Part shown: one piece after another, positions 2,220 through 50,991 of the stretch
How positions within the stretch are numbered: position 1 is the first letter of the stretch
How the letters are laid out: the number at the start of each line of letters is the position of its first letter
Origin: Dudresnaya verticillata
Lineage: Eukaryota
Direction of reading: 5' to 3'
NCBI GenBank assembly: GCA_977862235.1
Contig: OZ374565.1
Location: 744,001 to 808,000, forward strand
DNA: 64,000 nt
Program-made: the position numbers and the translations under genes
Notes under the pieces: model-generated
What the model saw: only the letters and a program-made list of their open reading frames with translations
Databases searched by the model: none
What the model was told of the DNA's origin: nothing

Positions 2220-2238
2220 TGGTCTCCCGACCTAGAAG
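2220..2238 (+). promoter_or_regulatory. Primer-binding site of element D
   Basis: TGGTCTCCCGACCTAGAAG just after the LTR; TGG is complementary to tRNA CCA. Confidence 0.9.
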
Positions 2239-2492
2239 TCGCAGAAGACCCTATCACCTCTCGCGTGGACGCGATCGAGGCCAAGAATGCCGCCGCTACC
2301 TACTTCGGCCGCTGCCGGTTCGACAGACGCCGCGGCAGGTGAAGTTGACGGTTGACGCAATTCCCTGCTGAGTAACGTCGGCGTCTCAGGAGCTCCCCTA
2401 GAGGAACTGCGCATCGAGCGCAGGGCGGCTATAGCCAAACCCCTAGTAGGGACAACGGTCTCTGCGACCTCCAGCTACTCTACGAGGAGACG

Positions 2493-4685
2493 ATGGACTC
2501 ATTTTCGGACGTGTACACCACCTTCATGGCCTCAGTCGCAGACGCTCGGGCACAAGGTCAGCGTGAACTGCAATCGCTTCGACGCGGAACTCTCGCCTCC
2601 GTCGAGGAAGGATTAACCCGAACTCAAGGGCTCCTCGACGAGCTACGCCAACGCGTTGAGTTGATTGAGCACGCACCGGCACGGTATGACCCGCAGGCGC
2701 CTAGCCCGTCGCCGGTGCGGAGCCGTCCTCCGCGATCGCCGTCTCAAGCGGATCCCGTTCGCGAGCTGACCAAAGCTCTCCTCGCTGAGCGTCGTGCTCA
2801 GCGAACTCCCCTTTATCCACCGGCCTCTCCGCATAGGAGTGGGCAAGGGTCCCCTCGCCCTACAAGACATGTCGACCCCTTCTACGGGGTCGACCCCAAG
2901 CTACTGCGACGCGCCCTCGACGGGCGCGGAGCTGGAGGGGCGTCTAGCCCCTCACCACACGAAGGCCCCGTGTCGGCCTACTGGCACTGGGGACCATTGA
3001 TGCCGGGCGTCGAGTCGCTGAGCACCTTGGTACCCGAATTCTCAAAGGCGATCGATTACCGCCGCTATCGTCTAGACGACATATGACAGCGGGACAATCA
3101 GCAGCAATGGCAACACGGCCAAGATTGTCAGCAGGATGAAGGCTCTCATGCCGCAGCTAGATCGCTACGACGGAAAGGAGCCCATCCGCTTGCTTGGCGT
3201 GCTTAGACAGCTACGCCAAGCCTTTAAAGGCGTCGGCCTGTCGGAAGGCGCAGCGGCGCAAGTGGTGTCCTGGGTCCTAGACGGAACGGCATCCCAGGTG
3301 TATTCAAGTCACCTTTTCTCGGGGTTCCGGACGACTAGTCGCGGCACTCCCCGTGCTGGGCCTCGGTGGTCAATACCCTCGTCGAGAGGTTCGTCACCGA
3401 CGACGTGATCGCCGACGCGCACGACCGATTCACCACCGCCCGGCAGCGGGACGCCGAGTCAGAACTGGGGTTCGCCTCTCGTCTAGAGGGCTACGCAGAT
3501 GACTGTGCCGGCGTCTACTGAGACGAGAACCTGACGCACCAGTTCCTGCGTGGTCTGCTTCCGACCACCCGACCCGCAGTGGCGGAGAAGGTAAGGCAGA
3601 TGCCGATGGTCGAGCAGACCAACTTCAGTACCGTTCGTCGGATCGCCCACAGTGAGGGCACCACCTACCGTGCCCGCATGGCCAAGGCGTCGACGCCGGC
3701 TATCGCTTCGGGGCGCGGTAGGGGAGCAGTTCGGCAAGCGGCCGCACGCTGCTTATCGAGGCGCCACACACCCCGGATAGGGAAGCGGCCTTCGACGGCA
3801 CGATGTTGGTGGCGCCCGATGACGATGGTTTCGAACCCGTCATGGTCGTGCCCGCGCTGTCGACAGCCGGGGCGGCGCAAGCCGAGGAGACTCTCGACAT
3901 ATCAGGACGCATCGACGCAGTCCTGCCGAGGAGGATACCTCCACTCACACCGGCGCAAGAAGCAATGGCCGGCGCTGTCACCCCTGATCGACAGGGGTGG
4001 TACATCTGCTGGTTCTGCCGTATATATAATGTACTCGTGCCCGTTCCTGACTAAGTAACATAAGTTGTACTGCGCGTATGCGAACTGCAACCATAGACTG
4101 GAGAGGCAGCCGCACGCGCGCAACAACTTGCAGCTGCTCATCGACAAGCGCATGCCGGCAGGCGCCAAGACAAGTTACCGCGCAAGAAGCTTCGACGAGC
4201 AGCGGGGTGGGGACCGACGCTTCGACGCGAGAGGTCCCCCGCAGCGTTTCGACGCGCAAAGGTATCTCGGGGAGCCGCGACGGTACCGCGGGGATCGTCG
4301 AGATCCGCGCCGCGATTAAGGAAGGGCAGACGTCCCGCGATTCCTTACTCGCGACAAGCGGGTCGGGTTTGACGACCAAGCCGGTCGCCAACCTCGGGCG
4401 TCGACGCCCTCGAGGCCCGACCCGCAGCGTGAACTGCTTCGAGCAGTGATGACCGTGCAGGAGCACACCGGGCTAGCAGCCGAAGAGTGGCTCCCGCGAG
4501 CGCTCGACGCGCATAGCAAGGGCGAGTCCGCCCGGGGGCAGGGCGAGCAGCTCCAGCTCTTTATTGACACACCGCCGCGATCGACGCGAGGCGCAGGCCG
4601 GGCGTCTAGTCAGCCAGTGGGATTCGAGGAAGATAGCTCGGATTCCGAAAATAATTTTGACCGGGTCGAACCGGAAAAAGAGTAA
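2493..4685 (+). pseudogene. gag: gag of element D (stops and frameshifts)
   Basis: Fragments KAIDYRRYRL, YDGKEPIRLLGVL...LSEGAA and a CWFC zinc-knuckle remnant, matching the gag motifs of elements A and B. Confidence 0.8.
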
Positions 4686-4964
4686 AGGCGGCACCGTTCG
4701 TGCGGTCGCGCGCACCGTCTCTCTCTACCCCAGACCCTCCATCCTCCGCAAAGTCGTCGACGGCAGGTGGGACGTCGAGTTCCAATCAACGAAGGACCTC
4801 CTCGCCAAGCAGCGCTGGGGGCCCCTACACGAAGAGCCGTCGAAGGCCACGCGCTCCAGGCCACCTTGGCCCCGCGGCGTCGATGAAAGCGAAAGGCACG
4901 TCGCCGAGCGCGTAGGTGTCCGTCTACGGAACCCGAGGCACCATCTGCTAGACGCGAAGGTTCC

Positions 4965-5837
4965 ATGGCTCACTGCGTCGCCGCGGAGCCGGCCACTACC
5001 CCAGATGGGTATGTGTGCCTATTGTCCTCGGAGATATACCGCGTGTCTGGGTCGCTCGGCGCTGACCCAGGGGTAATGATACCCCACACCATTGCGGTGG
5101 GCACCGGCTACGGGTACAACCTCATCGCGAAGCGGGTGCTGCCAACCGGATGGGATCAGCACGCGGTGGCGATGGAGTCGACTCCTCGCGTCGCTGGGGC
5201 TCATAAGACCCCACTGAGCCTATCAGGGGTGGCACACTTCTCGATGAGGTTGGGGAACACCACGTTCCGCGGGCCATTCATAGTGGCCGACACCTTGGCC
5301 GTCGACATCCTGGTGGGAACGCAGTTCCTCAACGCGCACGTGCGAGGCATCGACGTCGAATCAAAACGCCTATCGCTCCGATGCGGGGGCTCAGTGCCCC
5401 TCCTCAAGCGCAGTAGACCTGCCGAGGAAAGTAAGCCGGCATCGAAGCCGAAGAACCCGTCGACGGGTTTGTCAAGAAAGCACCAGAGGGAGCCCCTCGA
5501 CTGGAATCACGACACCCACACCATCCGCCTCTCTAGGCAGATGGTGCTCCCAGCCTATTCCCAAAGGCTCGTCTCCATGACGTCAGGAGCAAGTGGGCTG
5601 ATACACACCGAACCCAAACCCTCGTTGCAGTTCCGCCACGGCGTGAGACTTACAAACGGGGTGCACGACGTCGAGTCTATGCGACCCTTCGGGGTCATCA
5701 TCGGGAACTTCACTGACAAACCTCGGACCCTGCCTAAGGGTACCGTTGTCGGCTACGCGGTTAGGAACTCGGTTGCGCTGATAACTCCGGACCGCAAAGT
5801 CGCGGAGGAGTTCGGGCGGGTGATGAATATCACCACC
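4965..5837 (+). pseudogene. pol: Aspartic protease region of element D pol
   Basis: VGTGYGYNLI (decayed D[TS]GA motif) and AVDILVGTQFL. Rejoins the RT ORF in frame once the solo LTR and one TSD copy are removed (MNITT|LPPRGQ). Confidence 0.85.
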
Positions 5838-6612
5838 TGTAGTATAGCTGTCAGCACACTATCAGCAGCGGCTGTAAAGTATGCTGGCAGCCCTGCACTG
5901 TAATGGTGCACACGATGACGTCCGCTGGCGAGTCGTGGTTGGGCAGCGTGCCCTTAGTTTTTTCGTTGATTTAGTAGCGGACGGCCGCATTGCTGCCGGC
6001 AACGGCCGCGCGCCGTGCCGCACACGGCGCGCCCCTGTGACGTTCTCCGGCGTCGAGCCGTTGAGAGGGCCGCTGCCCGTTACGCCCCGCGCGCGCCCAC
6101 GGGTAACCGTTACCCGGACGTGTCGACACGTGTATGGGCGCGCGCTCGCACACCTCCCGCGTTGGTGTTGTGGGGCGCACCTACTGTAGAATTAGTCGTA
6201 GTGCGCATAGTGTAGGGTATTTAAGACTGTCAGCCATCGACGGCTCGGTAAACCGGGTAAGCAACAGCTCGCGCGGAAGCTTTCCCCCAGCCTTTTCGGG
6301 TTCGATCCCTTTGCTTTACGCCAGTGGGCGGTTCCCCTTTTCCCCCTTGCCTCGCTAGGCTTTTCCCCTTTCCTTTTCCTTTCCGTCGGCTTCGTGCAGC
6401 ACTTCGACAGGGACGCTGGGATCCGGCCGCTGCCTACCCGCGTACGGTACGCCCCGTGCGCGCTCCGGCATCGACGCCGTAGATCCGCACCTGCGGGGCG
6501 CACGCGGCCGACACCGCTCTACCAACCCCAACAGCTACCCATCGACGGGTCTGTGTGGCGGCTTCGGACCAGCAAGTATCAGACCTCGGATCGACCCGAC
6601 ATCTATACTACA
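5838..6612 (+). mobile_element. Solo LTR (775 bp) of a family related to D, inserted in D pol
   Basis: TGTAGTATAG...CTATACTACA perfect 10-bp inverted ends. TSD CCACC at 5833-5837 and 6613-6617. Shares CTCCGGCGTCGAGCCGTT, CCGTCGGCTTCGTGC and CCCGCGTACGGTACGCC with LTR 1372-2218. No adjacent PBS or PPT. Confidence 0.92.
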
Positions 6613-6617
6613 CCACC

Positions 6618-7655
6618 CTACCACCAAGGGGGCAGCGGCCTCCGGTCAACAAGGGTGGCGTCGAACCATCTACCTCGCCGTCGACGGCGAAGGGCATCGA
6701 CGCCCAGCCGCTGCAGGGCGCAGCTACCGCCGCAGCGAAGGCCAACCCGTTCGTCGAGGACTGGGAGGCGCAGGTCGACCTCTCGTCTATCGAAGACGAG
6801 GTCTCCCGCAAGGAGGTCCTCTCCGTGCTAAGGAAGCATCAGTCCATGTGGGACGGGAGGCTGGGCACCATTGCCGCCACCCGACACCACATCGACGTGG
6901 AACGGGGCACTCGCCTCATACGCTCCATTCCCTATCGACAGGGCCCTGCCATGCTCAAGCTGTTGCAGGACGAGGTGGATAACATGCTTCGTGCAGGGTT
7001 TATCGAACCCGCCACCTCGGAATGGGCATCGCCAGTAGTCCTGGCGCCCAAGAAGGACGGCACACTTAGGTTTTGCGTGGATTATCGACGTCTCAACACG
7101 AAAACGCTACGTGATTCGTACCCTCTACCGAGGACGGACGACTGCATCGACAGTCTAGGCGACGCAGCCGTCTTCTCGACTTTGGACTGCAACGCGGGGT
7201 ACTGGAAAATCCCTGTCGCAGAGGCTGACAGGGATAAGACCACGTTCACGTCGTTCTTAGGGATGTTTCGATACTTGCGAATGCCCTTCGGGCTGAAGAA
7301 CGCCCCCGCGACTTTCCAGCGCGCACTGGACATCCTCCTCAGCGGAGTCCGATGGCAGTGTTGTCTGATCTATCTAGACGATGTGATCATTTTTTCGCGG
7401 TCGACCGCGGAGCACGTTGGTCATCTAGACCAAGTGCTGACTCTGTTGCGCGGTTGCGCAATGGAGGAGTATCCCTGAAACTGAAGAAGTGCCACTTCTT
7501 TCAGTCGCACGTTGGATATCTAGGCCACGTCATCGAACCAGGGAAGCTACGCATGGCGCTGACAAGCAGCGACGCTTTCCGCCATGCGCAGTTCCCGACC
7601 TCCCTGACTAAGGTGAGTTCGTTCCTCGGAAATGTGCAATGTCTATCGCCGGTTC
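6618..7655 (+). pseudogene. pol: Reverse transcriptase of element D (5' part)
   Basis: SEWASPVVLAPKKDGTLRFCVDYRRLN, RMPFGLKNAPATFQR and YLDD; frameshifts after about 7450. Confidence 0.95.
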
Positions 7656-8253
7656 TGTAGCACAACGGGTCCAGCCCAGGAAGAGCAAAAGAACAAAGGA
7701 CACCTGTCCGGAACCGTCGTGCTCACAGGTAGCTCGGATGTGGTAGAGGCTTGGTAGAATGGCGCTAGGCCAGGAAAAAGGAAAGGGAAAAGGGGGACGC
7801 GACCCGGTATTCCGCAGGGAACCTGCCGTACGGTGACGAGCCTGTAGTTGGCGTCCAAAACGGGAACGGGAAGCGCCCGGAATCCAGAAAATGGTCAAGA
7901 CCGAGAAACTCCCCGTAGGGTTCAATCAGGGGTGCCCTGCTATTCAGGGGACCAATAAATAGGGCTTGTGCCCGTGCTAATACTACCTACTACAGTGTAC
8001 TGTACACGAATTACATTGAGCAATGGGAGGCGGATCTACGCCCCTGTGGCGGCGTATAATCGGGAAATATCCCAACGCCGCACCAATGATTAGGCGCCAA
8101 TTGCGTGTCTGAGGCGCAGATGATTTCGCGCCAGGCGCCAATCACGTGTCGCATCATGGCGCAGTCCAGCAATGCCAGCGCCTTACAGGGCATTGGCCCG
8201 TTACAACTTACAGCGTCGAGCGCCCACTTGGCGCAAATCGCCGTTATGTCACA
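7656..8253 (-). repeat. 3' LTR of element A (598 bp)
   Basis: TGTAGCACAACGG...CCGTTATGTCACA. By eye about 7 substitutions and one 1-bp indel versus 19653-20251. Confidence 0.97.
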
Positions 8254-8265
8254 CGGCCCCCCTCG
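8254..8265 (-). promoter_or_regulatory. Polypurine tract of element A
   Basis: Minus-strand CGAGGGGGGCCG abutting the 3' LTR. Confidence 0.7.
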
Positions 8266-8570
8266 TAAGACCGAGAGCCCGGCGAGGTCTGAACCGTTTC
8301 TGTGCCACAGTTTCCAATTTGCATTGGCGTTGTGCCCGATTTGTCGGGCCAAAGCCGGTGCAGCGTAACGTTGCGACTGGGACGCCGTCGACGAGAAGTC
8401 CCGCACTCTGAGCCAGCGCTCCGAAATAGTGAGCGTATATCAGGGTCGGCACCCGCGGCGTCGCAAGGTGTTTTGCGCCGGTACCCACCCCAACTCGCGC
8501 ACCCATCGCGGCCTCGTCGTCCTTCCTCCTCGAGCACGGGCAGCTCCTTCCCTCCACGCTTCCTCAGCGG

Positions 8571-11176
8571 GTGAGCCTTTTTGGCAATCTCCGCGTGTCA
8601 ACGCCGCGCGCGTGTCCTCCTCTCCACTTTGCGTCTCCCACGCGTAGGGAACGCCATCGCGAGTCGACGGTCGCACGACGCGGACATTCTCGCGCCCAAC
8701 GCACATCATCCTCCACAACTGACCATCTGGTCGAGGCAGCGCCTTTGCGGTTTCCAAAAGAAGACCTCCGGGCCAGGCCCATTGCAGGAGAGCTACAGAA
8801 TGTCTGCGATAGCCACTCACGCCTTGGCACCATGCCCGTGAATCCGCACTTCCAGTACGGACAGCCAGGGTCTTCCGACAATGTGGCGCCGGTCGCCGTG
8901 GTGGCGGGAGGCGTTCCCGCGGACATAGCGGCCAGCCGCGACTGGCAGGTGCGCACCGACCTGAACCATGTGCGGCCCATGGCAGGGGCCAATCGGGATG
9001 AGATACGCCGCTTGGGTGGGAAGAGGGCAGAAGCCAAGGCTTGGAACACGCTAATACGGACGCGGGTGAGTCATCTCTCGATGACGACGTTGCGTATCTC
9101 GACCCCGGGACTATTCCCCTTCGACTTAGCGCGCGCTCGTTGGCGCTGGGAAGTGCCGTGGGTGGAGAGCATGGCGAGCTTCATGAGCGACCGGAAGTAC
9201 GTCCTGGACGAAATTGCCTTGTCTGACAAGTATGACCTGCGGGCCGTAGGGCATAAGCGCCCCTTCATTCGCGCGGGCCGGGACAACTTTCCTTACAACA
9301 CCATGCGGATCACACTCCCGAATAACCGCACAACGTACAAGTACCATCTGGATACGTCGCAGACGGCTCTCCCACACGAAGCGGCCTGCTTTGAACGTCG
9401 CCAGCGGCATCGGACCCGTTGCTTGGTCCCGTGCCATTGTCAAGAGGTTACGGCTCTCAAGCCTGAGATGTTCACGAGTAAGTATCCTCAAATACCACCG
9501 GACTACGAATACTACGAAGTATCGTATTCGATGCCGGTGGGAGTGCCCACCATTGTCGCCTACCTAGGCTTGGAGTTGGTGCAGTCGTCCAACACGAGCC
9601 TGTTGTGGCTCCTCTACCGGCACAAATGGATCGTGCTGATCACCCAAGTCTTCATGTACGAGGCGCGGAAAGGCCGCCTATTGTTCATCAACCAGAAGAT
9701 ACGTGATGATATTCGCGAGATCGGCTCGTCGGAGTTTACGACCAATGCCGATGACGCCGTTGACTTGGACTCGCTCCTACTCTTTGTCGAGCGTATCGTC
9801 TGGCGACGAGTGTCGAAGCAAAATCGATTCTTGCCCGCAGATACGGGCACCATCACACCGGTGTTTGACCGTGGGGATTGGGTAGACTTCGACCCTGAGG
9901 CCTGGGTGCCGGATATTCCCGAAGACTTACTCAAGAGTGTCCCAGTGGACCCGGCTTCCTTGGAAGCCGATGAAGGCATGCGCTTGCGATCCGGCATTAC
10001 CGCGGGATGGGTGTGCAACAACTGCCAAGAGCCGAAGACGCCTGTGGAGGTGCCCGCGTACGATGCCTTGACCGATGATCAACCTCTGGGCCCCTACGCC
10101 CCTCCGGTTATTCACGGCCGTAGCAAGGGGACGCCGCGATTCGTGAAGTGTTCTGCCAACGCGGTTTGGCTGTGAGGCTCCACACTCACTGGAATATCCA
10201 GAATCTGACGGTGCACTCCCTCGCGGATTGGGTAGAAGCAGCCATGGTTGACTACAAAGCCTCGTGGCTTACGGTTCCGGGGCCCATCCATCGTATGTCG
10301 GAACATTTCCGAGGCTTGCCCCGTTTGGGCGAGTCCGCTAAGGTGGAGCGAGAAGCGCCTGTCGCGCGAGAAGAGTTGGCCAACACTGCGACCAGTTCGG
10401 CTCCAGTGGCATCTACAGCCATCGTTACCGCCCCCGTGGCCACTGCGTCGGCAGCTCCTGCTGGAGATACTCGAACCAGAGGCCGTCATGGCATCGGTTC
10501 AGCTGGGCGTCGAGCCCGTCAGGAGGAGGAGATAGTGCAAGGCTTGGCCATTCAAGGCGTCATCATACCTGGCAATCCGGGGAGTGTCCCACTTGCAGAG
10601 AGTCGCGATGATCGCGACGGCGACGCGGCAATGGCGTCTCTTCCTCCTATTTCGGAAGCTACCCTTGGGGCCACTCCGTCTCAAGAGCCAACAACAACGG
10701 CGGCAGCAACGGCACCGGCCAGCGGGGGAGATGAGGATCGGATTGAACCGGTCGCTCCTGCTGCGACGACTGCTCCAGCGTCCACTTCGGCCCCTGGGGC
10801 AGCGGTGATGTCTTCCCTGCCGCCGGGTGAGGCGCCGACGTCACTACCTATTGAAGGCAATGCGATGTCCAGGCCTGGCCCGATCGAGGCTGATTCTGTG
10901 CAACTCGTCTCTAGGACGGCAGCAGTGGTCAGCGCCAGGGTGTCGCCCGATTAGGAGTCGCAAGTCATGCCGGAAGAAGGCGGGGGCCTGGTTAAGACCG
11001 AGCTCGTCATTAAGGAAGAGCTCGAAGAGGAGCCAACTCCTATGGAAACGGACCCTGCTCAGCCGCGAGTGCGTCGCATCATCCGCGAAGTGCGGCGTAT
11101 CGTTCACCCGGTTGGTGCCGTGCGTCCAGCCAATGTGGACAACGACGAGGTAGTTGACCTGACGGAGGATGAGTAG
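8571..11176 (+). CDS. Antisense accessory ORF of element A, unknown function (one frameshift near 10150, one in-frame TAG at 10952-10954)
   Basis: ORFs 8571-10175, 10148-10954 and 10967-11176; first ATG at 8832. Homologous to ORFs at the same position in B and C and to 21103-22300. AATAAA at 11269-11274. Confidence 0.8.
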
Positions 11177-11928
11177 ACTCCCATCCTCCTGTTGCTCATC
11201 AGGGCGTTTAGCCCAAGACGTTAGTGCGGGCTTGCCGCGTAGAAGTTAATGTCTGTGCATTAGTTAAGAATAAAAGTCACTGTTGACGGGGGAATTTGCC
11301 AAGCTAATGGCCACCGCCAACATTGGTTGGGTTAGTGTTAACGTTAAAGTGTGCGTCGTGCGCGAGTTAGCCTCGTTGGTTTGTACAGTAGGTCAGGGGC
11401 CTCAGCCCTGTTCCAGCTTCCTGGAATAGGAAGTGAGCCTCCGCTCCATGACACCTGCGCCGTTGGGCAGAGAGAGAAGAGGGCCATTATCCTCGGATGC
11501 CAAGCGTAGCGGCGAACGGGTCGAGAACGCCCTCTAGCGTCGCGTCGAGGCCAGCCTCTACGGCAGAGAGCTTGCTGCCTTCCCCCTCGTAGTGGGGAAG
11601 GAGACAGTTGTTTCCAAAACGATGCTTGGCGTACGTGCGCGTACAATACTCGGTATCATACCGTCGCCAGACAGTGTCCTTTCCCACTTGAGATATATCT
11701 CCTCTCGCTGTGCGGCCACAGTACGCCCAACGGCACCAATTTCCAGCACTGTGCTATTTTGGCTTACACCTCTGCCCGTGGCATCGGACGATGCCGCCTC
11801 GCACTGTATCAGGCCGTGAAGCCAAAGGGGGCGTTGAGGCTGAGATATCTCTACCATAGGGTAATCCGCCTATCTCCAGGCGCTTGCCAACTCCCGTTCC
11901 AATGGGGGAGCTATGTCGCATACGCGAG

Positions 11929-13619
11929 TTAAAGCGGAATGCCCCGTTTGCGATGGTACCTCGCCACGAGGTTGTGAGGAAGGTTCTCCCGGGGTTCCCA
12001 CGTGTCGTAAGAGGCCGAGCGCTGGTGCCAGCGGATCTTATACCGTGCCGACTCGGGGTCATAGGACATGATCCGATCATAGACGTGCTCCCGCGGAGTA
12101 GGGCGCTGATAGCGCGAGAAGCGGCGCTCCGCTGGCGAAGTCTCAGGCTCTTGCGCAGGGCTTTCGCTCTCAACGGCGGGAGAAGTGGCGTTAGTGGGCC
12201 TCGCCTGTCCCGGCTGCAGTGCGGTCAAGGGCACGGTTCCCGCTTCGATGGGGCCTGGCCCAGTAGCCGGACTCGCCTCCATGATAGTAGGGGCTTCACC
12301 CCGAGCATCCAGCGGCTCGTCAGGGGGAGGCGCTAGCGTTACCCTGTCTAGGGAGACTGATTCCCGTTCGCTCTTGACCTCAAGGACCACAACGTGGGTG
12401 CCACGATCCACCACCTTATATGGGCCTAGCGCCTTAGGAAACAGTTTGCCTTCGCGATCCACGCCATCCACGTCTTTCACCAGAGTCTCGCGCTCTAGGA
12501 ACACCCAGCTTCCAACGCGAATATTCCTGTTCGCAGGGCGGACCCGTCGGTTGAAGTCCGCTTGATAGCGCTTCTGCGCGAGCCTCAGACGGGGTAGAGC
12601 GGTGTCCATCAATCGCTCCAATCGTTCTGATAAGCGTTTCTTGACGTTAGTCGCGGGGACATTAGCAACTTCCACCGTCTCGGGTCGCTCCAGGAACAGG
12701 GAGTTCGGGGATTTGAGATCACCAGATCGAAAGGGGATAGCCCCGTGGCTTTGTGCACCGTGGTATTGTACGCAAACGTGAGTGCGTTAGAAAACTCATC
12801 CCAGTCACGCTGATTCTCAGCGATGAAGTTCCTTAGCCCGGCTAGAATGGTGCGATTAAAGCGTTCGGTCTGGCCGTTACTTTGCGGGTGATAAGTAGAC
12901 GTAAATAGATTACGCACTCGCAGAATGCTGCAAATGTTCATGAAGAACTTCGAGGCAAACTGGGACCCATTGTCCGATAGCACATACCGCGGGGGTCCAT
13001 ATACATAGACCCAGTGGTCGCAGAAGGCCTTAGCGACGGTATAGGCCGTAATCGTCTTGAGCGGAACAGTCCGGGTTAGCTTTGAGAAGCGATCCGTGAT
13101 CACGAGTAAATATTCATTTCCCTTGCTTGACTTGGTCAATGGACCTAAAATGTCGATCCCGACAAACTCCAAAGGAGCCGTGGCGGGGAAGAGCTTGAGA
13201 AACGAAGTATGCTTCCTGAGCTTGACTCGTTCTTTCGCGCACTGGACGCAATTCCGAACGGTTGAGTAGACGGCCAAGGCCATATCTGGCCAATACACTT
13301 GCCGGCGTAGGTTGTGAAACATGCGGGTTCCCCCTGGGTGGCCAGCTAGGGCCGGATAATGGGCCAAATGTAGCACCTTTTCGCGAAGGGTCGCGGGTAT
13401 GAGAACCTGTATGGCTCCATCCACGTAAGCCTTGCGGGCGAGGAGCCCTCGTTCGCCTTCCAAGTAACACCCGGGGCTTCCCATATCAAGGCGCTTCTGC
13501 ACGTCTTGGCAGAACGAGTCTCGTTTTTGCTCTCGGAGCAGCTCCTCTACAGTAACTTGTGAGACGCTGCCCTCGTCAGCTCGCTTCTCCGCCGCGGTGG
13601 CGATGAGTATCTCGTCCAT
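11929..13619 (-). pseudogene. pol: Integrase plus C-terminal chromodomain of element A (one frameshift near 12675)
   Basis: H..GHPG..C..C zinc finger, IDILGP / SDNGSQF / QSNGQTERFN catalytic core, GPY motif, and YKIRW...YDTWEPRENL chromodomain. Confidence 0.95.
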
Positions 13620-13625
13620 TTGACT

Positions 13626-15209
13626 TTAATCCTCGAGGGGTTCGATGTCCCACACCTCTAGGGGCTCTATTTTGGTGGGTTTATCCGTGAACACCATTGT
13701 CTCCGCTGAAGCCATTCGGTCTGGACCGTCTTCCTCTTCGACTATGAAACAAGGTATCTCGAGATCAAGCTCCTTGTGGGTATGACCCCATGTAGGGAGG
13801 CGAGACACCGCGTCGGCAATCTGGTTCTTACGCCCCGTCCGGTATTGGACCGTAAAGTCATATTCCAAAAGGCGAAGCCTCCATCTCGCCAAGCGTCCTG
13901 ATGCGTCAGACATACTCATGATCCAGCGTAACGCTTGATGATCCGTGAAAAGATCGAAGTGAGACCGTTCCAAATAGGGTCGCAATATCTGTACTGCCCA
14001 TACGACGGCGAGACACTCTTTCTCTCCGACTGAGTAGTTTTTCTCCGCTTTCGTTAGCGAACGGCTCCAGAAACCAATAGGGTGCCGATCACCATTCTCA
14101 TCGGTCTGCATCAGGGCACAGCCCACTTGATAGTCGCACGCGTCGGTGTCGACTGATAATTGGCGTCCCACTTGCGGCAGTTGGAGTATGAGCGGAGCCA
14201 CGAGTGCTTTCTTCAGAAGCGAGAAGGAATCTCTTTGTTCCTCGTTGAACATCGGGAGGTTGAAATCCACTGTCTTCTGCAGTAATGCGTTAAGCGGCAC
14301 AGCGACTCTCGCAAAGTTGAGCACGAACCGTCTATAAACGTTGCACAAGCCAAGGAAAGAGCGTAGCTGCGTTTGCGTTTTTGGTTCCCTAAACCCGTCG
14401 ATGGATTGTGTGTTCTTCGAGGCGACCTCCAGGAGGCCAGGGCGGACCACGTGTCCCAGATAATCGACGCTCTTCGCGAAGAAGTTACATTTCTTCAACT
14501 TCAGCGATACTCCTGCGTTCTGGAGCACCTCCAGGATTTCCTTGACGTGAGCAAGGTGCTCTTTGACGCTTTTGGAGAAGATGATGATATCATCCAGATA
14601 TACCAAGCTCGACTTCCATCTGAATCCAGACAGGAGAATGTCGACCGTTCGCTGGAACGTGGCTGGTGCATTACATAGCCCAAAGGGCATGCGGCAAAAT
14701 TGGAAGCATCCAGCGTGACAAGTGAACGCCGTCTTCGGCTGGTCTTCATTGGCGACTGGTATCTGCCAGTAGCCAGAATTAAAATCAAGCGTTGTGAAGA
14801 ATTGGGCATCTCCCAGGGAGTCCAGACACTCGTGCATACGAGGCAAAGGATAAGAATCCTTGATCGTTACTGCATTAAGCTTTCGATAGTCGACGCAAAA
14901 GCGTAAGGAGCCATCAGGCTTATTGCCCAGCACGACTGGGCTCGCGAATTCCGACCGCGCGGGTTGTATGACCCCTGCTTCCAACATCTTGGTTACTTCC
15001 GCTTGTTCAGCCTGTCGAGCTTTGGGACCTGCCCTATAGGGTTGTGAGAAGACGGGTTTCGTCCCTGGCTTGAGCTCGATACGGTGCTCCGTGACTTTGA
15101 TAGTCCCGAGTTTACCACTCCACATTTCCGAGAATGACCGGAGCATCGTGCGTACTCGACGCTGATCCTTTGGTTCCAGATGTGAAAGGTTTAGGTCTTC
15201 GACCGTCAT
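13626..15209 (-). pseudogene. pol: RT-RNase H of element A
   Basis: LRFCVDYRKLN, YLDD, DTDACD, EKECLAVVWA, TDHQAL, ADAVSR. Separated from the integrase ORF by one in-frame TAA. Confidence 0.96.
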
Positions 15210-16285
15210 GTTGGCGACCGAGGCCTTAATGCCTGGTTTAGGATCCGTATCCGGAGAAAAGGCAGCAGCCAGCCCTGCCCCCCCACATCGAGCGACGGCT
15301 CGTCGGGTTCGTGAGGAGTAGATGGGTCGTCCTCGAAGGACAGAGCGTAAACGGGGGTTGTGGACGGAGCCGGAATGGCGTGTCCAATCTTCTGGCGTTT
15401 GGCCAGTCGCTTCGGGCCGCTAGAGAAATTGGCGACCTTGACCCGGAACGGCCGGTTAGGTTGCACGTCGATGATGCCATTTGTGGCAACCAGACCCTGG
15501 CGGTCGTAGAGCCGCTGGAATGAATCCATGAAGTGCACACCTCGCGCCGGGCACGTGACCGTGACCCAGGCTTCTGACGCCGCGGGTATAACAACCGAAT
15601 GTGCCACGCGCAGGTGTCGCGGTTCGGGAGGACCAGTGGGGACCTCTTGTGATTCCGCGGGGCGCGAAGCGCGTGGGAGTCCGCATCGTCGACGTAATAT
15701 CGGGTGTATGGACCCATCACGCAAGACGGCGCGTTGACGCTTGATTCTTAAGTTATCGATATGGTGGTCGATGAAGGTACAACCCAGGATCACATCCACG
15801 GCGAGTGCTTGGACGACGATGAAAGGTTGTCGGACCGTGTAGGTTCCGATTCGAACGTACAGGGAGATAGTCCCTAAGGTAGTTAGTTTGTGCCGTGAGG
15901 CGGAAGTTAGATTCACGATGGACCGGCCAGAAGCGATCTTCTTTTGATCCTCCGAGGAAAGAGCACCAGCTCGTATGAGGTTGGGGCCTGCCCCTGTATC
16001 CAGGACCGAAAGGACGCGAGAGAGTTCGTCAAGAGAGGTCCCAATGGACGCTGCCACTTTATAGTTATATCGCGACAGCGCGCATATGGGATCCTTACAA
16101 TACTCATCAAAAGTGCGACCTCGAGGAAGCCCTAGAGGGCGAGGTAGGATTTTCCTTGGGAGGATGTTTGCGTCGGATGCTGGTTCCGGCCGATCCGGGG
16201 ATGACGGGGACGGGTGTCCGTCCTCGCTCGATCGGTCGGGGGAGCCCGGGTCGCGTAGCAAGAGCTGCGGTTCGACGGGGTCCAA
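15206..16285 (-). pseudogene. pol: Aspartic protease region of element A
   Basis: VLDTGAGPNLI and DVILGCTF motifs. Confidence 0.93.
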
Positions 16286-16296
16286 GGTCCCCCAGT

Positions 16297-19063
16297 CTAG
16301 TTTTTCGGCCCACGGCCGTGTCTTGCTGATGGGGATGCCGGTAAAGGCGGAGGAGGTGGGAATGGTCTGCCACTCGGGCGAGGAGAGCGGGGGTTACTCC
16401 GCGGCCTATCCACAGGATGGTTGAGGGAGTCGGCGAACTGCACCTGGGGACTTGCCGGTAGGGGTGCCCCCTGTTCTCCGGGTGCGTGCTGGCCGTGCCC
16501 TCGTTGAAATGTCGACGTGAATTTTGAGGACCTGGATCCGAGGGACGCATCTCATTCGCGAATGATGGCGAACGGCCCACGATGGACAGCCATTCCCGTT
16601 GCTCCCTGGAGAGTTGGGCTTAATGGTTACGTAGTATCTGTGAGAAGCCACGCTCGTCTGTTCGTGCCAGATATGGACAATTGGGCTTTTTATGCCCGAT
16701 GCCCAGACATTCGAAGCAGATGTCATTCGGCCTATCCTCCACCACTAAACATCCGGGACGCTGTGTGCGAGATGGTTGGGCCCACGAGGGAAGCCTCGGA
16801 TTCTGGTTGGAGAGTACCGCACTGACGGAGTCATAATAGCTGTCCGTAGCATCAGACGGGGCTGGGGACCAGACTCCCGATGTTGTTAGGGACGAATCCG
16901 GCGCTTGGCTATCAATGGCCGCTACCACAGCGTACTCCGAATCGGAGCGAGTCCTTGTAGAGCCACCACTGTCACTTGACGCGACCTCAGTGTTGGGACG
17001 TCCCTGTCTGACCAGTAGCGCCCGTCCGGCCTTCTTGGATTTAACGGAGGACTTTCGTCGCAACATTGAAGTACCAGAGACACGCTCTCGACGACCAGCG
17101 CCCATGAGGGCCCGGTGTGAGTCACCTTGGGCAGTAGCCAGTTCCACATAGTCGGCAAGCTTTGCCGTCCGTGGGTCCAAACCCGAATTGCTCAGTAACG
17201 GCTTTGTGGCCGGCAAGAGTCCACGGATGAACCGGGTAATCAGGTCCTGTTCTGTATACATACCCGCGACCTTTCGAGCCTTATTCTGGAGGCGCCGTGA
17301 GAAGGTCACTTCGTCCTCATCCTCGGCTTGAGCCATACGGTCCATTTCCGAGGCTATCCTCTCGATGTACACGTCCTTCGCATATGTGCGTAGGAGGTAA
17401 TTGACAGCCTCGGGCCACTCGGAGAATCCTCCATTATCATCCCCGGCCACGTCGAAGTTGGCTTCGAACATGTCTCGCGCATCCTTATCCAGGAACTCGG
17501 GAAGCACAAGGATTGCTGCTCCTTCGCTTATCCTGGCTTGGTCCAGTTGGCGCTTCAAAGCGGCTAAGAAGCCAATGATCGCAACTGGATCACTTCCGTC
17601 GAACTTGCGACTCTTCATTACGGACTTGATCCTCTTGATCCTTTCGACGTGTCCTCCGTGACTTCTGGACCCCTGTATTGGTCCAGGTTCAGCAGACGAT
17701 AGCGTCGATAAGAGAGAACCTGAATGAAAGCCGGGTTCTGCGGAGCCAGCTCCTTAACGTCCGAGCGTCTAGGTCCTCGCCAAGAGGGGCGCGATGAACT
17801 CCTCGGTGGGGAACTATCCTTTTCGGAGAACTGCGGCTGACGCCGCTGCGCCGACCGACGTGGTTCATCCCGGTTTCGACGGGATTCAGTCCCTTGACCA
17901 GTACGGCAGGTTTTGCAACCGGAATGCGCCGCGCGCGGGTTGTCCACATCCGAATGGTCGTGTACCGATTCGGCATCGGAGTCTCGCCTAGGCGAATGAC
18001 GTCGCCGGTCTCGAGTGCCCTTTGGCACCGGGTTCCGGCGTCGCTCCACTTCAGGCGATAAGTTCTTCTCAAGAAGGCATAACTGGAGACGAGTCTCGAT
18101 TATATTGACCCGACGCCGTTCGTCAGCTAGCTCCTTCCGTAAGAGCGCAATTGCTCGGTCCTGTTCTACGCACGTGGCGTCATTCCCATCGAGACGAAGG
18201 GCCCGAACTGCTTCGGACGCTTCTTCCCGTGAGAGGTCCACTGCTCGAGTGAGGGACTCAAAATCTCCGTGGATTGTTTTCACCCGCTCCACGAGCGAAT
18301 CTATCCTCGCATCGAGTGATTCCATTTCATCCGCCACTGTCTGTCCTGTATCGGAGTGGCGGATGCGGCCGGTCATTTCCTCTTGACACAAGGTCAGTAT
18401 CCGCTCATCTCGGCGTCCGGCTGACTCATCGATGTAGCGTTTTACACGCGTGAGCGTTTCATCAGCCTGTGCTGCGGCAAGCGGCCTGATTTGGGTCGCT
18501 ACGAGGTGACCAACACCATCAGCGACCATTCAGTGGATCTCCGATTCCGTAAAGCATCGGAAGTCCTCCGAATTGGTATTCGTTCGGGTCGGCTGCCCAT
18601 ATCCAGGCGCCGAGTCGACCTCTGTCGGTGCCGCGTAATCGGTCGATCGTCCACTGGGGAGTCGCCCTGATTCCGGCATCAGTTCTGGACCCTGGTCCTC
18701 ATTCCCATCCACGTGTGTGGATGTTTGCAGTTCTGACCGGGTCATTTTTCCTTCAAACGAGGCCGAATCCCTTCCAGGGTTCGGCATTAAACCGGGAGTA
18801 GTCCCGAGAACCAGGTCGGGCCTCGAACGTCCAACCAATGGCGGTCGTTCGCGGTTTGATCTTGGTTCGGGACCGTCTTCATCGGGGGCGTCGCCGTCGA
18901 TATGGCGTCGCCCCAATCGCCCGTCCGAAGGGCTGCGCCTTAGCGCGGCAGTCCCTGAACGGGTGGTAACGCCCGAGATACGGACTGAGGAAAGACTTCC
19001 GGCACGACTGCCACCACGGCCGATGAGGCTCGGCCTGGTTGTATCGCCATTCGATGTCGGCAT
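16297..19063 (-). pseudogene. gag: gag of element A (disrupted)
   Basis: ORFs 18530-19063 and 17618-18529 (same frame, one TGA) and 16620-17618. Motifs SYRRYRL, FDGSDPVAIIGFL and the CX2CX4HX4C knuckle CFECLGIGHKKPNC. 3' end approximate. Confidence 0.88.
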
Positions 19064-19632
19064 CCTTCCGATGGTATGGGACTAATAACCCGTCCCAAAA
19101 ATAGGTAGTAATTCCGGAAGGGCCGGTGGGTCGATGGGACTTTTCCCGATGCACCAACCGGCGTTCCGTAAGTGTTTCTCGCACGAGACGATGCGTCGAA
19201 GGGGAATCCTTTCCAGCTTGAGAACGGTGCTCGTACGTAAGCCTTGGTAGACTTCAGGGCTACCAGCGATTTCTCCAAGAGGACTCTCCAACTTGTGCGC
19301 TGGCACGGCCTGTACAAAAGGACGGTGTTTTACCAGGATGCACCGATAACCTGTCGAAGCAGTCTTGAGGGGGGCGTCAGTCACGCCCTCAACGGCAACT
19401 TCTAAATGGCCACTAGGGCCGGTTGTAATTCCAAGAATAAACGTGCTCGCCACTGATTTGACGCTACTGAGCGGCTTGAGATGGAGCGTAGAAACCGTCA
19501 ACAGTCCTGACTAGGGTTTCAACACCGGTTGGCCGGGAAACTCGTCCTTGACACGAAACAACATCTTGAGTCTTGTACTCGTTGAGTTAACCAACCAGGG
19601 TTGAGGAAGAAAGGGGAAACCAACCCAGAACA

Positions 19633-19651
19633 CTTCTAGGTCGGGAGACCA
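19633..19651 (-). promoter_or_regulatory. Primer-binding site of element A
   Basis: Minus-strand TGGTCTCCCGACCTAGAAG, 1 nt from the 5' LTR. Confidence 0.9.
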
Positions 19652-19652
19652 A

Positions 19653-20251
19653 TGTAGCACAACGGGTCCAGCCCAGGAAGAGCAAAAAGAACAAAGGACA
19701 CCTGTCCGGAACCGTCGTGCTCACAGGTAGCTCGGATGTGGTAGAGGCTTGGTAGAATGGCGCTAGGCCAGGAAAAAGGAAAGGGAAAAGAGGGACGCGA
19801 CCCGGTATTCCGCAGGGAACCTGCCGTACGGTGACGAGCCTGTAGTTGGCGTCCAAAACAGGAACGGGAAGCGCCCGGAATCCAGAAAATGGCCAAGACC
19901 AAGAAACTCCCTGTAGGGTTCAATCAGGGGTGCCCTGCTATTCAGGGGACCAATAAATAGGGCTTGTGCCCGTGCTAATACTACCTACTACAGTGTACTG
20001 TACACGAATTACATTGAGCAATGGGAGGCGGATCTACGCCCCTGTGGCGGCGTATAATCGGGAAATATCCCAACGCCGCACCAATGATCAGGCGCCAATT
20101 GCGTGTCTGAGGCGCAGATGATTTCGCGCCAGGCGCCAATCACGTGTCGCATCATGGCGCAGTCCAGCAATGCCAGCGCCTTACAGGGCATTGGCCCGTT
20201 ACAACTTACAGCGTCGAGCGCCCACTTGGCGCAAATCGCCGTTATGCCACA
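19653..20251 (-). repeat. 5' LTR of element A (599 bp)
   Basis: Near-identical direct repeat of 7656-8253, next to the PBS. Confidence 0.97.
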
Positions 20252-20256
20252 GGTTC

Positions 20257-20513
20257 GTGCGCAACTTTGCGAAGATCGCGCGTCCTCTGACGAACATGAC
20301 CCGCAAAGACGTTGATGTGGATTTCGACAATCCAAGCGCCGACGCGCGCGAGGCATATGAGACGCTCAGAGCGAAGCTCATATCGCCCCTATCCTAAGGC
20401 TGCCCAAGACGGGCAGACCCTACGTCCTCGACACGGACGCATCGGATTCTCAGATCGGATGCGCCCTACTGCAGGAGCAGGATGACGGCCAGCTACACGC
20501 AGTCAGGTACTGA
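20257..20513 (+). pseudogene. pol: Continuation of element D pol (RT connection and RNase H start), truncated
   Basis: VRNFAKIARPLTNMTRK, then after a frameshift LPKTGRPYVLDTDASDSQIGCALLQEQDDG. Confidence 0.9.
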
Positions 20514-21102: not shown

Positions 21103-22300
21103 CTACGAGCTATTCCGAAAGGAATTCAATAGCCTTGTGCTCCCCGAGCGGAGGATTATGCCGAGAATGCGCATGTGTTTCTCTGACTCGGCGCACCTCG
21201 CGCACGATACGCGCTCCATGCCCGCGACGATTTCCGCGGCGTCGACGATCACCGAATCCTTCACTGTCTGATCCAGCAGGGGTTGCACCTCGCTTATCAA
21301 TTTCCATAGGCGAACCTTCGTGCACCCCCTCGCCCTCCGTGCGATCAATCTCATCCTCCTTATGAAGAAGGAGCTCTGTCTTAAAGATGATTTCAGACTA
21401 ACCGGGGCAAGCGTAGAAGGCTGTACTTTCGTATTGGAAATCGTGGGGCAACTCCCACTCGCCTTGATGGGCCTGGTCGCGGAAGATCCACCAGGCGGAG
21501 ACGGCAACGGCGCTCGCATAGACGACGGTTCAACTTCCGAAGGAACTGCCGTAGTTGTGACCATCTAAGCTTGGTTAATAGCGAGCGCCAAAACTAATGC
21601 CCCTGCAGACCTCGCCTGATTAGGCCACGCCCATGCCTTAGCCGCCGAAGCCGATGCCACCCCCGCTGTACAGCTCAAATCAGTCTATCTATCGGGCATA
21701 GAAGCTGCCTCAATGTTATCCTCGCGCGGGATTTTGCTGGCATCAGCCTCGGCGGCTTTACGGGCATCTAAACCCAGGTTGGACCCAATCGCCCCTGGGC
21801 AAAAGCATCTTGACGTTGCGGATGGCCTAGCCCTTTTCAGCTGTTCTTACCAGGTTCAGCCAAGTAGCTTTCGGCTTTTATGCGGCCCAGCGGCGGTAGG
21901 GCCTGTAGATGCGCCGCGAAGCAGGCCCGCTCCACACGGCCTGGAGTCTCGGTCCAATGAGCCTCGTATTCGGCAAACACATCCTCAACCCAGTCCGCAA
22001 GGCTCGACAGGTTCAAACTGCATACATTCCAATGAACGCCCAAGCGGATTTCTAAGCCACGACAGCTGAGGGCATCGCGGATTTCCACATCAGCGTGGTA
22101 ATGATGGGCCACCGGGGTGGCGTACGGACCTTGCGGCTAGCCGTCGACAGTGTCGTCGAAGGGCGGCACCTCCTCAAGGGTTGTCGGAGCTTCATCGCGC
22201 CACCTGGCGCTAACCGAAAAGCGGTTGTAACCGCTGAGATGCTCTCCTTGTCTAACAGGACCGAATCCCCCTCAGAAAGAAGCTCCGGCAGAACATACAT
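21103..22300 (-). pseudogene. C-terminal half of an antisense accessory ORF homologous to 8571-11176 (probably belonging to element D)
   Basis: EEVPPFDDTVDG*PQGPYATPVAH versus A VEVPAYDALTDDQPLGPYAPPVIH; RGLEIRLGVHWNVCSLNLSSLADWVE versus A RGLAVRLHTHWNIQNLTVHSLADWVE; FKTEL...RIVREVRR versus A VKTEL...RIIREVRR. Confidence 0.85.
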
Positions 22301-23725
22301 TTTGATTCGCTCCTTTGTCCGTACTGCCCAGCAAGGTCTTTTTGGGGGGTGTCCTGTACGTTTTGTCCGTACTATATTCTTGCACTGGCAGAAATTGGCG
22401 ATTTAGCCGGATCTGATGGAGGTTAGCCTCCAGGTGCTATATATAGGTTTAGAAATGCATAGATTTGACACCGCTTTTTGGCGCACTGATAGAGATACTA
22501 AAATGTTATCGTCCTAATTAGAACTGAGTTTGTTGAACTCTTAGATGATAGCCTTCGGGATGATAAAAGATCTGAACGTTTTGCAGTGGTACGCAGGAAA
22601 GTAAATGAGCAATAAGGGGCCCGTCTCGGCCGAGCGATAGCGCTTGTTATATGGCCTGGTTCCGTTGTTGCCCTCCGTCCTCACCGAAGGCTGCGTGCTC
22701 TTTCCCTCACCTTGATGGTATCGCTCCGACCCTGCCGCTGCAAAAGTCTCAATGTCTGCTGCTGGGTGACTGCGGTGGCCCCATGCGGTGGTATTGCCAC
22801 ATATGGATACCACGCTTTGGGTTTGAGACCGCGTTGTCCTGTGTCCCGGGATTTCTTGGTAGCCCCTTAATGTCCCCCGTTGCACAGTAGTACGTCCGGT
22901 TGTAGTGTCGTATTGTTTCTGCCACCACGTATCCGGTGTGGGGCTTCCGAAAAAGCTACAAGTAGCAATAAAAGGACTGTGTAAGCCGGATGGTTTATTT
23001 GGAATCAGCCTTACAGTCAAAAAGACGTTTAACCATCCAAGAAATGTTCTGTTTCCGCCGGAACGGCACAGTAGCCCAGATTCGCATCTATAAGTTCAAC
23101 ATAGAGAATTTGTGGCCGCCGTAATTCTTGATACTTTCAGTAGTCTTCGAGTGAACTTGCGGTTGAACTTGAAACAGAAGATCAATGCGCGGAATAGTCT
23201 CCACAACGTCGGACCTCCTCTTCTACAGCTCGCTAATTGTCGCCTGGAACCCCAGTACTGATTGGCGGTAGGGCAGAATAGCGAAATTAGGGTCGTCAAT
23301 TTTCCAACGATGCGTGATCAAGAGATTAACTTGAGGCTGAGGCAACACGACTGCCAACTGTAATTGGTCACCCTATCGAAAATATTAATTAAAAAGATCT
23401 CCGCACAGATTTCTGTCGGTAATACAATCGCCACACAGAGACGTTGAACCATTGTAGAGCGTTCCGACAGCTTCGAAATCATTAACAGCGGTGTAAAGGA
23501 AAATACATCAGGCGTCAATTCCGGCCCTACACCATCTCCCAGGTTTATAGCTTCGCCGGCCTTCTCGATTGTACACGCAAGAGACCGTTTGCGCAGAATT
23601 CGGCTCGCCTTCGCTGCACCTCCAATTTATAACCACTCCGTCCTCATTGTTTTTCAGAGCTGAACATGCAGAGTAAACTAAACATTGCTAGAAAACTGCA
23701 CTGCCACCAACGAAACGCATTAAAA

Positions 23726-23836
23726 ATCGAATGACGAACCTCTCCCAGGCCCGGCCGCAAACGCATCGCACAACGAGGTGTTTTAGGTACGAATAAAACA
23801 TCGAATGACGATCCTCTCCCAGACCCGGCCGCGAAC
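23726..23836. repeat. Two-copy 37-bp direct repeat, period 74 bp
   Basis: ATCGAATGACGAACCTCTCCCAGGCCCGGCCGCAAAC and ATCGAATGACGATCCTCTCCCAGACCCGGCCGCGAAC. Confidence 0.8.
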
Positions 23837-34588: not shown

Positions 34589-35190
34589 GTGCAACAGGCT
34601 GTAGAGTTGATGCATAAGGATGTTTCGCCTCGCGTGGAAGCCAATAGAAGGAAACATGTCCAGGAGCACAACAAACGGAAAAACCTCGTCACACTCAACA
34701 TCGAAATTGGGGACTTTTTTGGTTGTTCACCGAGCTCAAGACCGTGGACATCAGATAACTTTCAGATGGATTGGCCCCGTCGTGTTTCACACATCATTGG
34801 ACATACGTTTTATGAGATCTCTGGTATAGTTCATGACAAACCTGAAATTGTCCATGCTTCTAGGATGCAACTGCATCTCGCAAATTTGGACGGTGCTGAG
34901 GTTTTTGAGAAGGTGCCTCGCTGAACAGAACGAATTGGATCTAGACCTAAGATGGTTGAGAACCTATTGGACATCGGAGAGCCGGATGATGTTTGTGGCA
35001 CAATGTTCTATATGTGCAATTCCAATGAGTTCGTCAGCCAGGTAAGGTCGACTGGAAATGGCAGCCAATTACAGAGCTGTATAAAGACCTTCCTGAAAAG
35101 GTTCAGGCACCCCAGCGCAATACGCGCAAAGAAAAGCTCGAAATCACACCCAGAAAGCGCGCAAATGCCCTCGCCGATATACTTCAGCGT
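34589..35190 (+). pseudogene. Decayed Ty3/Gypsy integrase C-terminus (GPY/F-like) and chromodomain-like remnant
   Basis: Across frames: NIEIGDFLVVHR...ITFRWIGPRRVSHII...EIVHASRM, then VENLLDIGE and WQPITELYKDLP. Confidence 0.6.
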
Positions 35191-35669
35191 ATGCAGTGGC
35201 CTTGTAAAGAACTGTTAGAAACAGGACAAGCGGAGAGCTTCAAGTTTAGAATAGTACAGTTGAGTTTTGAATGGTACCCCATTCGGACCAGGCCCTCTGG
35301 CTCGTTTTTGTGCTCTCGATCTGAACAGCAGAAAAAAGCAGTAGATAAATACGCTTTCCTTCCATTAACATAGGATGGAGAGCTTTTAGGCCACGTAGTT
35401 GGATAATTTCGACAAACTGGAGTTTGCAAGATGACTTTAGGTCCTTTTCTTTTCAGGTGGCAGCAGAAGGACAGAGCTGCTTACAGGTACAGCCAGTCAT
35501 ATTGGGCTCACTCTACTGGTCTGTACTCGCCAATCTCACTTTCCTCACTGGGGTCCAGAATAGAGGTCACAGTGAAATACTAAATCCTACAGTGCGTGGA
35601 GATAGTTATTTGCATTCGCGGACTTATAAACGGAGTTCTGGAACGGAAGTGCCGGAAGAGGTGGATCTT

Positions 35670-35931
35670 TGTGATGGCTCGAGGGGAACTACGAGCCAGG
35701 TGACTTGCGATAACCTACAGGGTGAAGGCCAAAGCTTCGGCTGCGATGCCGGGGGTCTACTGAGAGGGATCGTCCGTGGCGGAGTAAATACTACTGCACC
35801 GCGATGAAGTAAGCGACGGCGGCGCGTTCCTGACACGTGGCCACGTGGCCACGTGGCGGACGCCGTGAGAGAATCCTCAAAGAGGTACTATCAGGTACGG
35901 GGCAGATAATAGCCATGCGCAGCTGGCCACA
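35670..35931 (-). repeat. 3' LTR of element F
   Basis: Direct repeat of 39068-39329, about 29 mismatches by eye (roughly 89% identity). Minus-strand GAAAGAGGGGAG PPT at 35932-35943. Confidence 0.9.
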
Positions 35932-38882: not shown

Positions 38883-39067
38883 AAAAGACGGGCCTTGCGT
38901 CGTGACAGGCGGCGTAGAGGATGTCTCCGATATGATGATGTCAACTCCGTTTCGGTTTGGAGCCCTGTGTGGCGATCGGTGGGTGATCGTAGCTCGCTTT
39001 CGTGAACCTTGTAGGTGACCAGGTTTGATCCGTTACGGATCGTGCACTCCTTAGTCGTAATGATCAC

Positions 39068-50979: not shown

Positions 50980-50991
50980 GGAAGGGGGTCG
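50980..50991 (+). promoter_or_regulatory. Polypurine tract of element C
   Basis: GGAAGGGGGTCG directly before TGTGATGCAA; resembles the PPT of B (AAGGAGGGGGGTC). Confidence 0.7.

Follow-up and report, generated by a model that had tools for sequence, protein, structure and literature searches.

A conserved antisense third gene in chromodomain Ty3/Gypsy retrotransposons of a likely red-algal host

Antisense ORFs between pol and the 3' LTR (aORF-3R) have been described in maize Grande (gene23), rice RIRE2, Silene Retand and bean PvRetro13; the Grande protein is nuclear and has its own promoter, and the fungal Boty elements also carry an antisense extra ORF (PMC7264820). The functions of these ORFs are an open question (PMC7264820; PMC11963269, in the part available). 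Retand, a non-chromovirus of flowering plants, encodes TRP28 and frequently contains tandem arrays (same part of PMC11963269), and the Boty gene, brtn, is known from Botrytis cinerea and Sclerotinia (PMC7264820; excerpts of PMC8365987). The preliminary description of the present locus placed antisense extra ORFs in plant Tat/Retand-type elements and credited chromoviruses typically with gag-pol only. This calls for a qualification, since extra ORFs also occur beyond Tat/Retand: the one of Boty is antisense (PMC7264820), and Tekay chromoviruses have a conserved 5' extra ORF with an NLS and long disordered parts (PMC11728184, in the part available). Outside LTR retrotransposons, VANC is an anti-silencing factor encoded by VANDAL/MuDR transposons (available parts of PMC13547354 and 10.1101/2025.02.11.637652).

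The third gene described here shares with the aORF-3R class its position and antisense orientation, its presence in most copies, and conservation on a par with the core genes. It differs in that its carriers have a chromodomain and a host that is likely a red alga, and in that it matches neither Transposase_28 (PF04195) nor any shared Pfam family (123 sequences, E<=0.01). The contrast with Retand TRP28 is the same, PF04195 being matched neither by the 123 members nor by nine ORFs from independent loci; moreover, against the Retand arrays there is only a 78-nt repeat in two copies, in element B, and the carriers have a chromodomain. Boty brtn is likewise an antisense extra gene of a non-plant Gypsy element, but from a fungal host, and was compared by description only; Boty we take to be a chromovirus. 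Tekay is similar as a chromovirus with a conserved extra ORF, but that ORF lies upstream of gag and is mostly disordered (PMC11728184, same part), whereas the present gene lies downstream, is antisense and has a large folded core. VANC and the MAIN plant mobile domain serve as a model of a folded, element-encoded accessory protein that counters silencing (PMC13547354, in part), but VANC comes from eudicot DNA transposons, the Pfam searches do not connect it with the present protein, and we identified no target repeat.

The family is apparently undescribed, within the known architectural class of antisense extra ORFs. We found no description of a red-algal third-gene family in the literature searched; Repbase, subscription journals, and red-algal genome papers with their supplements may mention one. 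In its available part, PMC3350952 reports a screen of the three red algae of the time that found no chromodomains of retrotransposons, and the main text of 10.1101/2025.02.11.637652, as far as available, does not contain the word "antisense"; its supplements include a curated Gypsy family.

Nested elements and their third genes

The window, the whole 64-kb stretch of DNA analysed, is a nest of Ty3/Gypsy elements:

2220-7655, plus: element E, with primer binding site, gag, PR and RT; RH resumes at 20252-20510, beyond A
7656-20251, minus: element A (LTR pair 98.7% identical, TSD GGTTC; TG...CA LTRs, primer binding site and polypurine tract present)
7656-8253, minus: 3' LTR of A, 98.7% identical to 19653-20251
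8254-8265, minus: polypurine tract of A, from the sequence
11929-16393, minus: pol of A, broken (PR-RT-RH-INT-chromodomain)
16620-19081, minus: gag region of A, fragmented
19636-19651, minus: primer binding site of A
19653-20251, minus: 5' LTR of A, TSD GGTTC
42339-46823, plus: pol of element C with chromodomain, broken
50978-50991, plus: polypurine tract of C, LTR directly after
50992-51640, resuming at 63291-63529, plus: LTR after C, split by the insertion of B
51641-63285, minus: element B (LTR pair 99.3% identical, TSD CCAAC; TG...CA LTRs, primer binding site and polypurine tract present)
51641-52315, minus: 3' LTR of B, TSD CCAAC
55492-62479, minus: gag-pol of B with chromodomain
62611-63285, minus: 5' LTR of B, 99.3% identical to 51641-52315

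A, B and C are chromodomain Ty3/Gypsy LTR retrotransposons. A and B both have PR-RT-RH-INT, and a Pfam scan matched the chromodomain (PF00385) in A (6.4e-7) and B (1.4e-11); the chromodomain and PR-RT-RH-INT order of C were seen by tblastn and in the sequence. C has its 3' LTR and polypurine tract, with no 5' LTR found in the window. A is inserted in the RT/RH region of the older element E, in which we found no integrase, and B in the LTR after C. The LTRs of A, B and C had been called unrelated, and by blastn they show no similarity. The 16-base primer binding site of A recurs at 2220, 62589 and 63532 (four occurrences in the window), and among the 120 RT matches listed three bear red-algal names (Chondrus crispus, Agarophyton chilense), the basis on which we hold a red-algal host to be likely.

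The window contains further remnants. Because the LTR after C is preceded by a polypurine tract and followed by a primer binding site (50978-51640 and 63291-63547), it may be common to two tandem elements. A 3.7-kb element at 35664-39332 is flanked by terminal direct repeats of 271 nt (88%); its gag-like and protease-like frames, on the minus strand, are broken and it has no RT match, so that it is possibly a non-autonomous TR-GAG-like element. The 5' LTR of E (1693-2219) has a 77% similar copy between PR and RT of E (6041-6613), probably a solo LTR of a sister family. An LTR end at 11-143, 76% similar to the LTR after C and in opposite orientation, adjoins a gag fragment (656-1335); two 78-nt direct repeats (86%) lie between the third gene and the pol end of B (55301-55463); and 22300-35600 has lower GC (47-50%), strand skew and short ORFs without Pfam match.

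The third-gene copies are distributed as follows:

8835-10175, plus: A, piece 1, from ATG 8835; conserved core about 8865-9980
10124-10954, plus: A, piece 2, after the frameshift; segment shared with D, then Ala/Pro/Thr/Ser/Glu-rich tail, in-frame stop
10955-11176, plus: A, C-terminal piece, with SUMO-acceptor-like and SIM-like motifs
21103-22262, minus: copy D, 3' part of an A-related third gene, core missing; antisense to E pol
48241-50554, minus: C, in several frames; core about 49529-50362, tail 48241-49299
52945-55109, plus: B, in pieces; core match 53191-54003, start provisional

Between the pol end and the polypurine tract, A, B and C all contain a long ORF that runs antisense to gag-pol and ends in a low-complexity tail, just as the preliminary description had it; the Ala/Pro/Thr/Ser/Glu-rich composition it named is seen in A. 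Every copy in the window is broken. The start of the A gene had been put at 8571, which is not a start codon: the frame is open from 8433, its first in-frame ATG is at 8835, 582 nt from the 3' LTR, and it runs to 11176 but is broken twice, by a frameshift near 10116-10124 and by a stop codon in frame at 10952-10954. B has an in-frame stop at 53773-53775, a frame change ahead of the tail and an NLS-like motif at the tail end, and in C a 45-nt segment is duplicated at 49688-49781. A also deviates at some family-conserved positions, for example K264 where 39 of 46 relatives have E, and is therefore probably not a working copy.

The interval 21103-22300 had been taken for a fourth partial copy. 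This holds for the segment behind the core, the only one in which D (21885-22262, minus) matches A (tblastx 1.2e-20), and by eye D also shares the C-terminal motifs of A; the core, however, is missing, and a second copy of it proposed in D was unsupported by profile searches, which gave no core match there. Since no integrase lies between the RH of E and D, that D belongs to E is something we infer. A 10026-10294 and D 21927-22193 form a second small conserved segment after the core, without significant match among 122 protein relatives or the metagenome loci (best E 0.054).

Homology, genomic context and selection

The preliminary description aligned A, B and C by eye. In pairwise frameshift-aware scoring, with X placed at frame breaks and 12 shuffles each, A-D (224, null maximum 49) and A-C (79, maximum 49) lie above the shuffles, whereas A-B (49, maximum 59) and B-C (52, maximum 58) do not exceed the shuffle maxima, so that the by-eye similarity of B alone is not above chance. 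Profiles match all three. A phmmer search with A piece 1 among 1.84 billion representatives (50% identity clusters) found 122 clusters at E<=1e-3, 43 of them at 1e-10; these relatives are sequences taken without genomic context. From them we built a core profile (60 external relatives spanning the core) and a wide profile (46), both without window sequences. The core profile matched C in three colinear frames (7.6e-19, 2.8e-8 and 2e-5) and B in two (1.3e-9 and 0.086), with a best reversed decoy of 0.015 among 15,428 ORFs; the wide profile matched A at 8865-9980 (1.9e-75), B at 53191-54003 (5.5e-15) and C at 49529-50362 (to 5.7e-19). Hhalign gave 96.7% for B, and the profile of A's relatives matched that of the metagenome-locus family (97.9%, E 3.7e-13).

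By profile comparison, A, B, C and the external copies are thus shown to be homologous, with cores only 13-17% identical on matched columns in A, B and C; in the integrase, B and C have 48% and 57% identity to A. When built from seven metagenome loci alone, a profile failed to match A or B and reached C only at 0.012. Word-index searches yielded no match among 6,492 candidates with A piece 1, and with the 123-sequence alignment a single match, already in the family.

Among the protein relatives, P0156 has the third-gene core in frame with a short integrase fragment of the same clade, probably a rearrangement or assembly chimera. P0175 and the RT match P0028 are both listed on a 21,947-nt contig, and P0268/P0271 and the RT match P0042 all on one of 17,640 nt, hints at element context.

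We examined context in 82 loci chosen by integrase alone, the best 80 of 182 from metagenomes and two from genome bins. The preliminary description had suggested checking whether the domain lies antisense inside elements: it is on the minus strand, within 6.5 kb behind the integrase, in 37 of the 40 loci with at least 3 kb downstream, a count to be read knowing that 61 of the 83 rows of the integrase tree (a quick version) are one family, that 18 listed matches represent the same site in two assemblies, and that seven of these loci had served to build one of the two profiles. Position and antisense orientation as in the aORF-3R class are therefore found in A, B, C and these loci, in most copies, in a gene conserved like the core genes. 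The domain was not found in L051, L059 and L060 despite at least 3 kb beyond the integrase core, and six of the 42 loci with shorter downstream DNA also match. Besides A, B and C, the carriers comprise six external lineages (L006, L009/L013, L073, L022/L048, L029/L031/L044 and the large family). Three matches are on the plus strand (L043, L037 and L020); in L043 and L037 the domain lies antisense to another pol, itself on the minus strand, and in L037 a nested element separates the two.

In L006 the 5' part of the third gene (10603-11510) overlaps the terminal repeat (1-760 and 11330-12089, 95.8%), so that in this lineage the start may lie inside the LTR. In L077 an antisense frame (6841-7740) runs off the contig end and opens with the last core motif (E 0.18); this is probably a further lineage with the third gene. 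The contigs of the close relatives L003 and L083 stop 1.5 and 1.9 kb past the integrase core. In a scan of prokaryote genomes, L083 and L084 were the sole members of this Gypsy clade; these and P0022 are eukaryotic-clade Gypsy elements in bacterial genome bins, likely binning contamination. Searches of viral contigs found nothing relevant.

Selection was assessed in a codon alignment of the 18 loci with the core in one frame. Variants shared among 13 copies of the large family are 117 synonymous against 35 non-synonymous (N/S 0.09), close to the integrase (47 against 11, N/S 0.07), and singletons give 0.70 and 0.65, respectively, as expected for decay after insertion. Third-gene dN/dS is 0.17-0.54 in 24 of the 26 pairs listed (153 in all); the remaining two are the closest pair (1.36, 24 differences) and a saturated one. 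Differences in the core cluster at third codon positions of the antisense frame, and in 16 of the 18 cores, ties counted, no other frame contains fewer stops. Between families the third-gene core is 36-57% identical and the integrase 74-88%, and such quick divergence is what a host-facing protein would be expected to show.

We conclude that these chromodomain Ty3/Gypsy elements carry a conserved, element-borne antisense third gene, a selected coding gene under purifying selection; that it is real and selected we regard as practically certain. Profile homology, constant place and orientation in independent loci, and purifying selection bear out the element-encoded accessory protein that the preliminary description envisaged. 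It had also named observations that would count against this protein; the profile similarity among the three cores, a shared-variant N/S far from 1, and the lack, in the searches made, of any match to a described family or captured host gene all fall on the other side.

The predicted protein and its possible role

The predicted protein consists of a core, about 370 residues long, and behind it a tail that is acidic and of low complexity. Near-invariant core residues are W37, R40, R77, D97, R102, E106, R188, R191, E228 and W323, with R191 and W323 present in 46 of 46 sequences. AlphaFold2 with 123 sequences predicts a compact, mostly helical domain (pLDDT 84.6, pTM 0.86; 93.3 and 0.87 for residues 215-385 alone), and an uninformative homodimer prediction, run without alignment, scored 0.00. 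That the core has no recognisable domain, as first described, agrees with our searches. No Pfam family is common to the 123 members, the sole match being one of the 123 to phage E2 (0.0026), and what we take to be the Pfam family of the plant mobile domain is not matched among them; the window pieces gave none apart from SHQ1 (E 0.038) on an off-frame piece of C, and the nine locus ORFs one weak match to Peptidase_M91 (0.027). PHROGs matched 0 of 10, and the best PDB match by sequence was E 0.091, on the tail. Structural searches reached E 6.1 (Foldseek against PDB), 2.3 (against BFVD; 0.47 for the C-terminal half) and, with VIA-align, Z 3.5, rmsd 3.4 and 67 aligned (7qoc_A) and Z 3.1, rmsd 6.3 and 81 aligned (4yde_A); one ESM Atlas query with a poor model gave no usable feature match, only rows with TM<=0.35. 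With PDB and BFVD searched, and with models of the whole core and of residues 215-385, the lack of a clear fold match does not prove a new fold.

The core is neutral; the tails are acidic, with a high content of Ala, Gly, Ser, Arg and Pro. Without net positive charge the core is not favoured as a simple DNA binder. We found an NLS-like motif in nine of 42 tails (shuffles 2.7, maximum 8), a SIM-like motif, picked after viewing the sequences, in seven of 42 (shuffles 0.4, maximum 3), and an M-E/D-x-D motif enriched over shuffles, each thus in only 7-9 of the 42. Neither a more permissive SIM pattern (10 of 68 against 9.0 in shuffles) nor psiKxE (6 of 68 against 4.0) was enriched, and the SIM pattern occurred in none of five locus tails.

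We tentatively suggest that the protein helps the element to escape host silencing or supports its transcription, and think it somewhat probable that it is nuclear. Its own transcript would start from a promoter in the 3' LTR or the adjoining spacer (582 nt in A) and encode a soluble protein with a predicted folded core and acidic tail; the tail might take it to the nucleus and to SUMO-modified chromatin proteins, and the core could engage either a silencing factor of the host or nucleic acid of the element itself, so that copies stay transcribed. The protein would come from the few intact copies and act in trans. The suggestion draws on divergence between families despite conservation within them, on the tail motifs, and on the precedents of Grande gene23 and VANC. 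Against it count the confinement of the motifs to a minority of tails and the antisense AATAAA, found downstream of the ORF in A and B but not in C, and in one of 13 loci. A fuller version, in which this is an old, lineage-wide accessory gene of red-algal chromodomain elements with a new fold, counters silencing by way of host chromatin machinery, reached through SUMO-binding tails, as an LTR counterpart of VANC, and arose independently of the land-plant antisense genes, is unlikely to hold in every part.

Purging within families as strong as that of the integrase, and presence in nearly all copies with enough DNA, would also suit a replication cofactor that binds element RNA, Gag or the pre-integration complex and aids export, packaging or nuclear import, or limits copy number. 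Such a role has been put forward for the antisense ORFs of plants on the model of retroviral accessory proteins (PMC7264820; PMC11963269, in part). The cofactor is a serious alternative with perhaps a minor share of the probability; the divergence between families, far above that of the integrase, would be expected of a partner in the host that changes rather than of a conserved one in the element. The conserved charges could instead mark an enzyme or ligand-binding core with an invariant Arg/Asp/Glu pocket for a nucleotide, nucleic acid or chromatin mark, since many of the top-conserved positions are charged (R40, R77, D97, R102, E106, E187, R188, R191, E204 and E228) and putative enzyme domains are known from accessory genes of DNA transposons in red algae (10.1101/2025.02.11.637652, in the part available). 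We consider this improbable: there is no conserved Cys/His set (only H192, in 22 of 46), the GC-rich locus family and B deviate at several of the charged positions, and the charges may be buried salt bridges. Still less probable is that the protein and the chromodomain together steer new copies into heterochromatin or other elements. A and B are inserted in related elements, nesting is frequent among the loci, and SIM-like tails would suit SUMO-rich chromatin, but the interaction is a candidate one and nesting is common wherever elements are dense.

That the 122 protein relatives were taken without genomic context leaves some room for a captured host gene or nested foreign sequence, either a hitch-hiker or one whose benefit goes to the host and not to the element. 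We saw, however, no terminal repeats belonging to the gene itself; across nine lineages its position and orientation stay constant, it is under selection in the lineage that transposes, and none of 30 looked-up clusters has a name or an NCBI or UniRef source; we give this reading very little weight. That the ORF encodes a membrane protein of the env kind, or is an artefact of open frames in GC-rich DNA, is hardly credible and already largely refuted. The position is that of env, and long open frames are common in GC-rich DNA here, but the sense orientation and transmembrane helix of env-like ORFs are absent from the third gene (hydropathy peak of at least 1.8 in one of 122 relatives and in none of 16 window and locus pieces), and the third-position differences and scarcity of stops in the antisense frame are not those of an artefact.

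We suggest that the third gene family is an independent case of an antisense extra gene outside land plants. For further study it offers a diverse set of over 120 relatives, near-invariant positions as targets for mutagenesis, public loci in which the ORF is naturally uninterrupted, and a structure predicted with confidence; annotators of repeats and genes in such genomes also gain a domain that had not been annotated. Silencing of elements in red seaweeds is described as unexplored (10.1101/2025.02.11.637652, in the part available), so that an element protein that evolves fast could lead to the machinery of the host.
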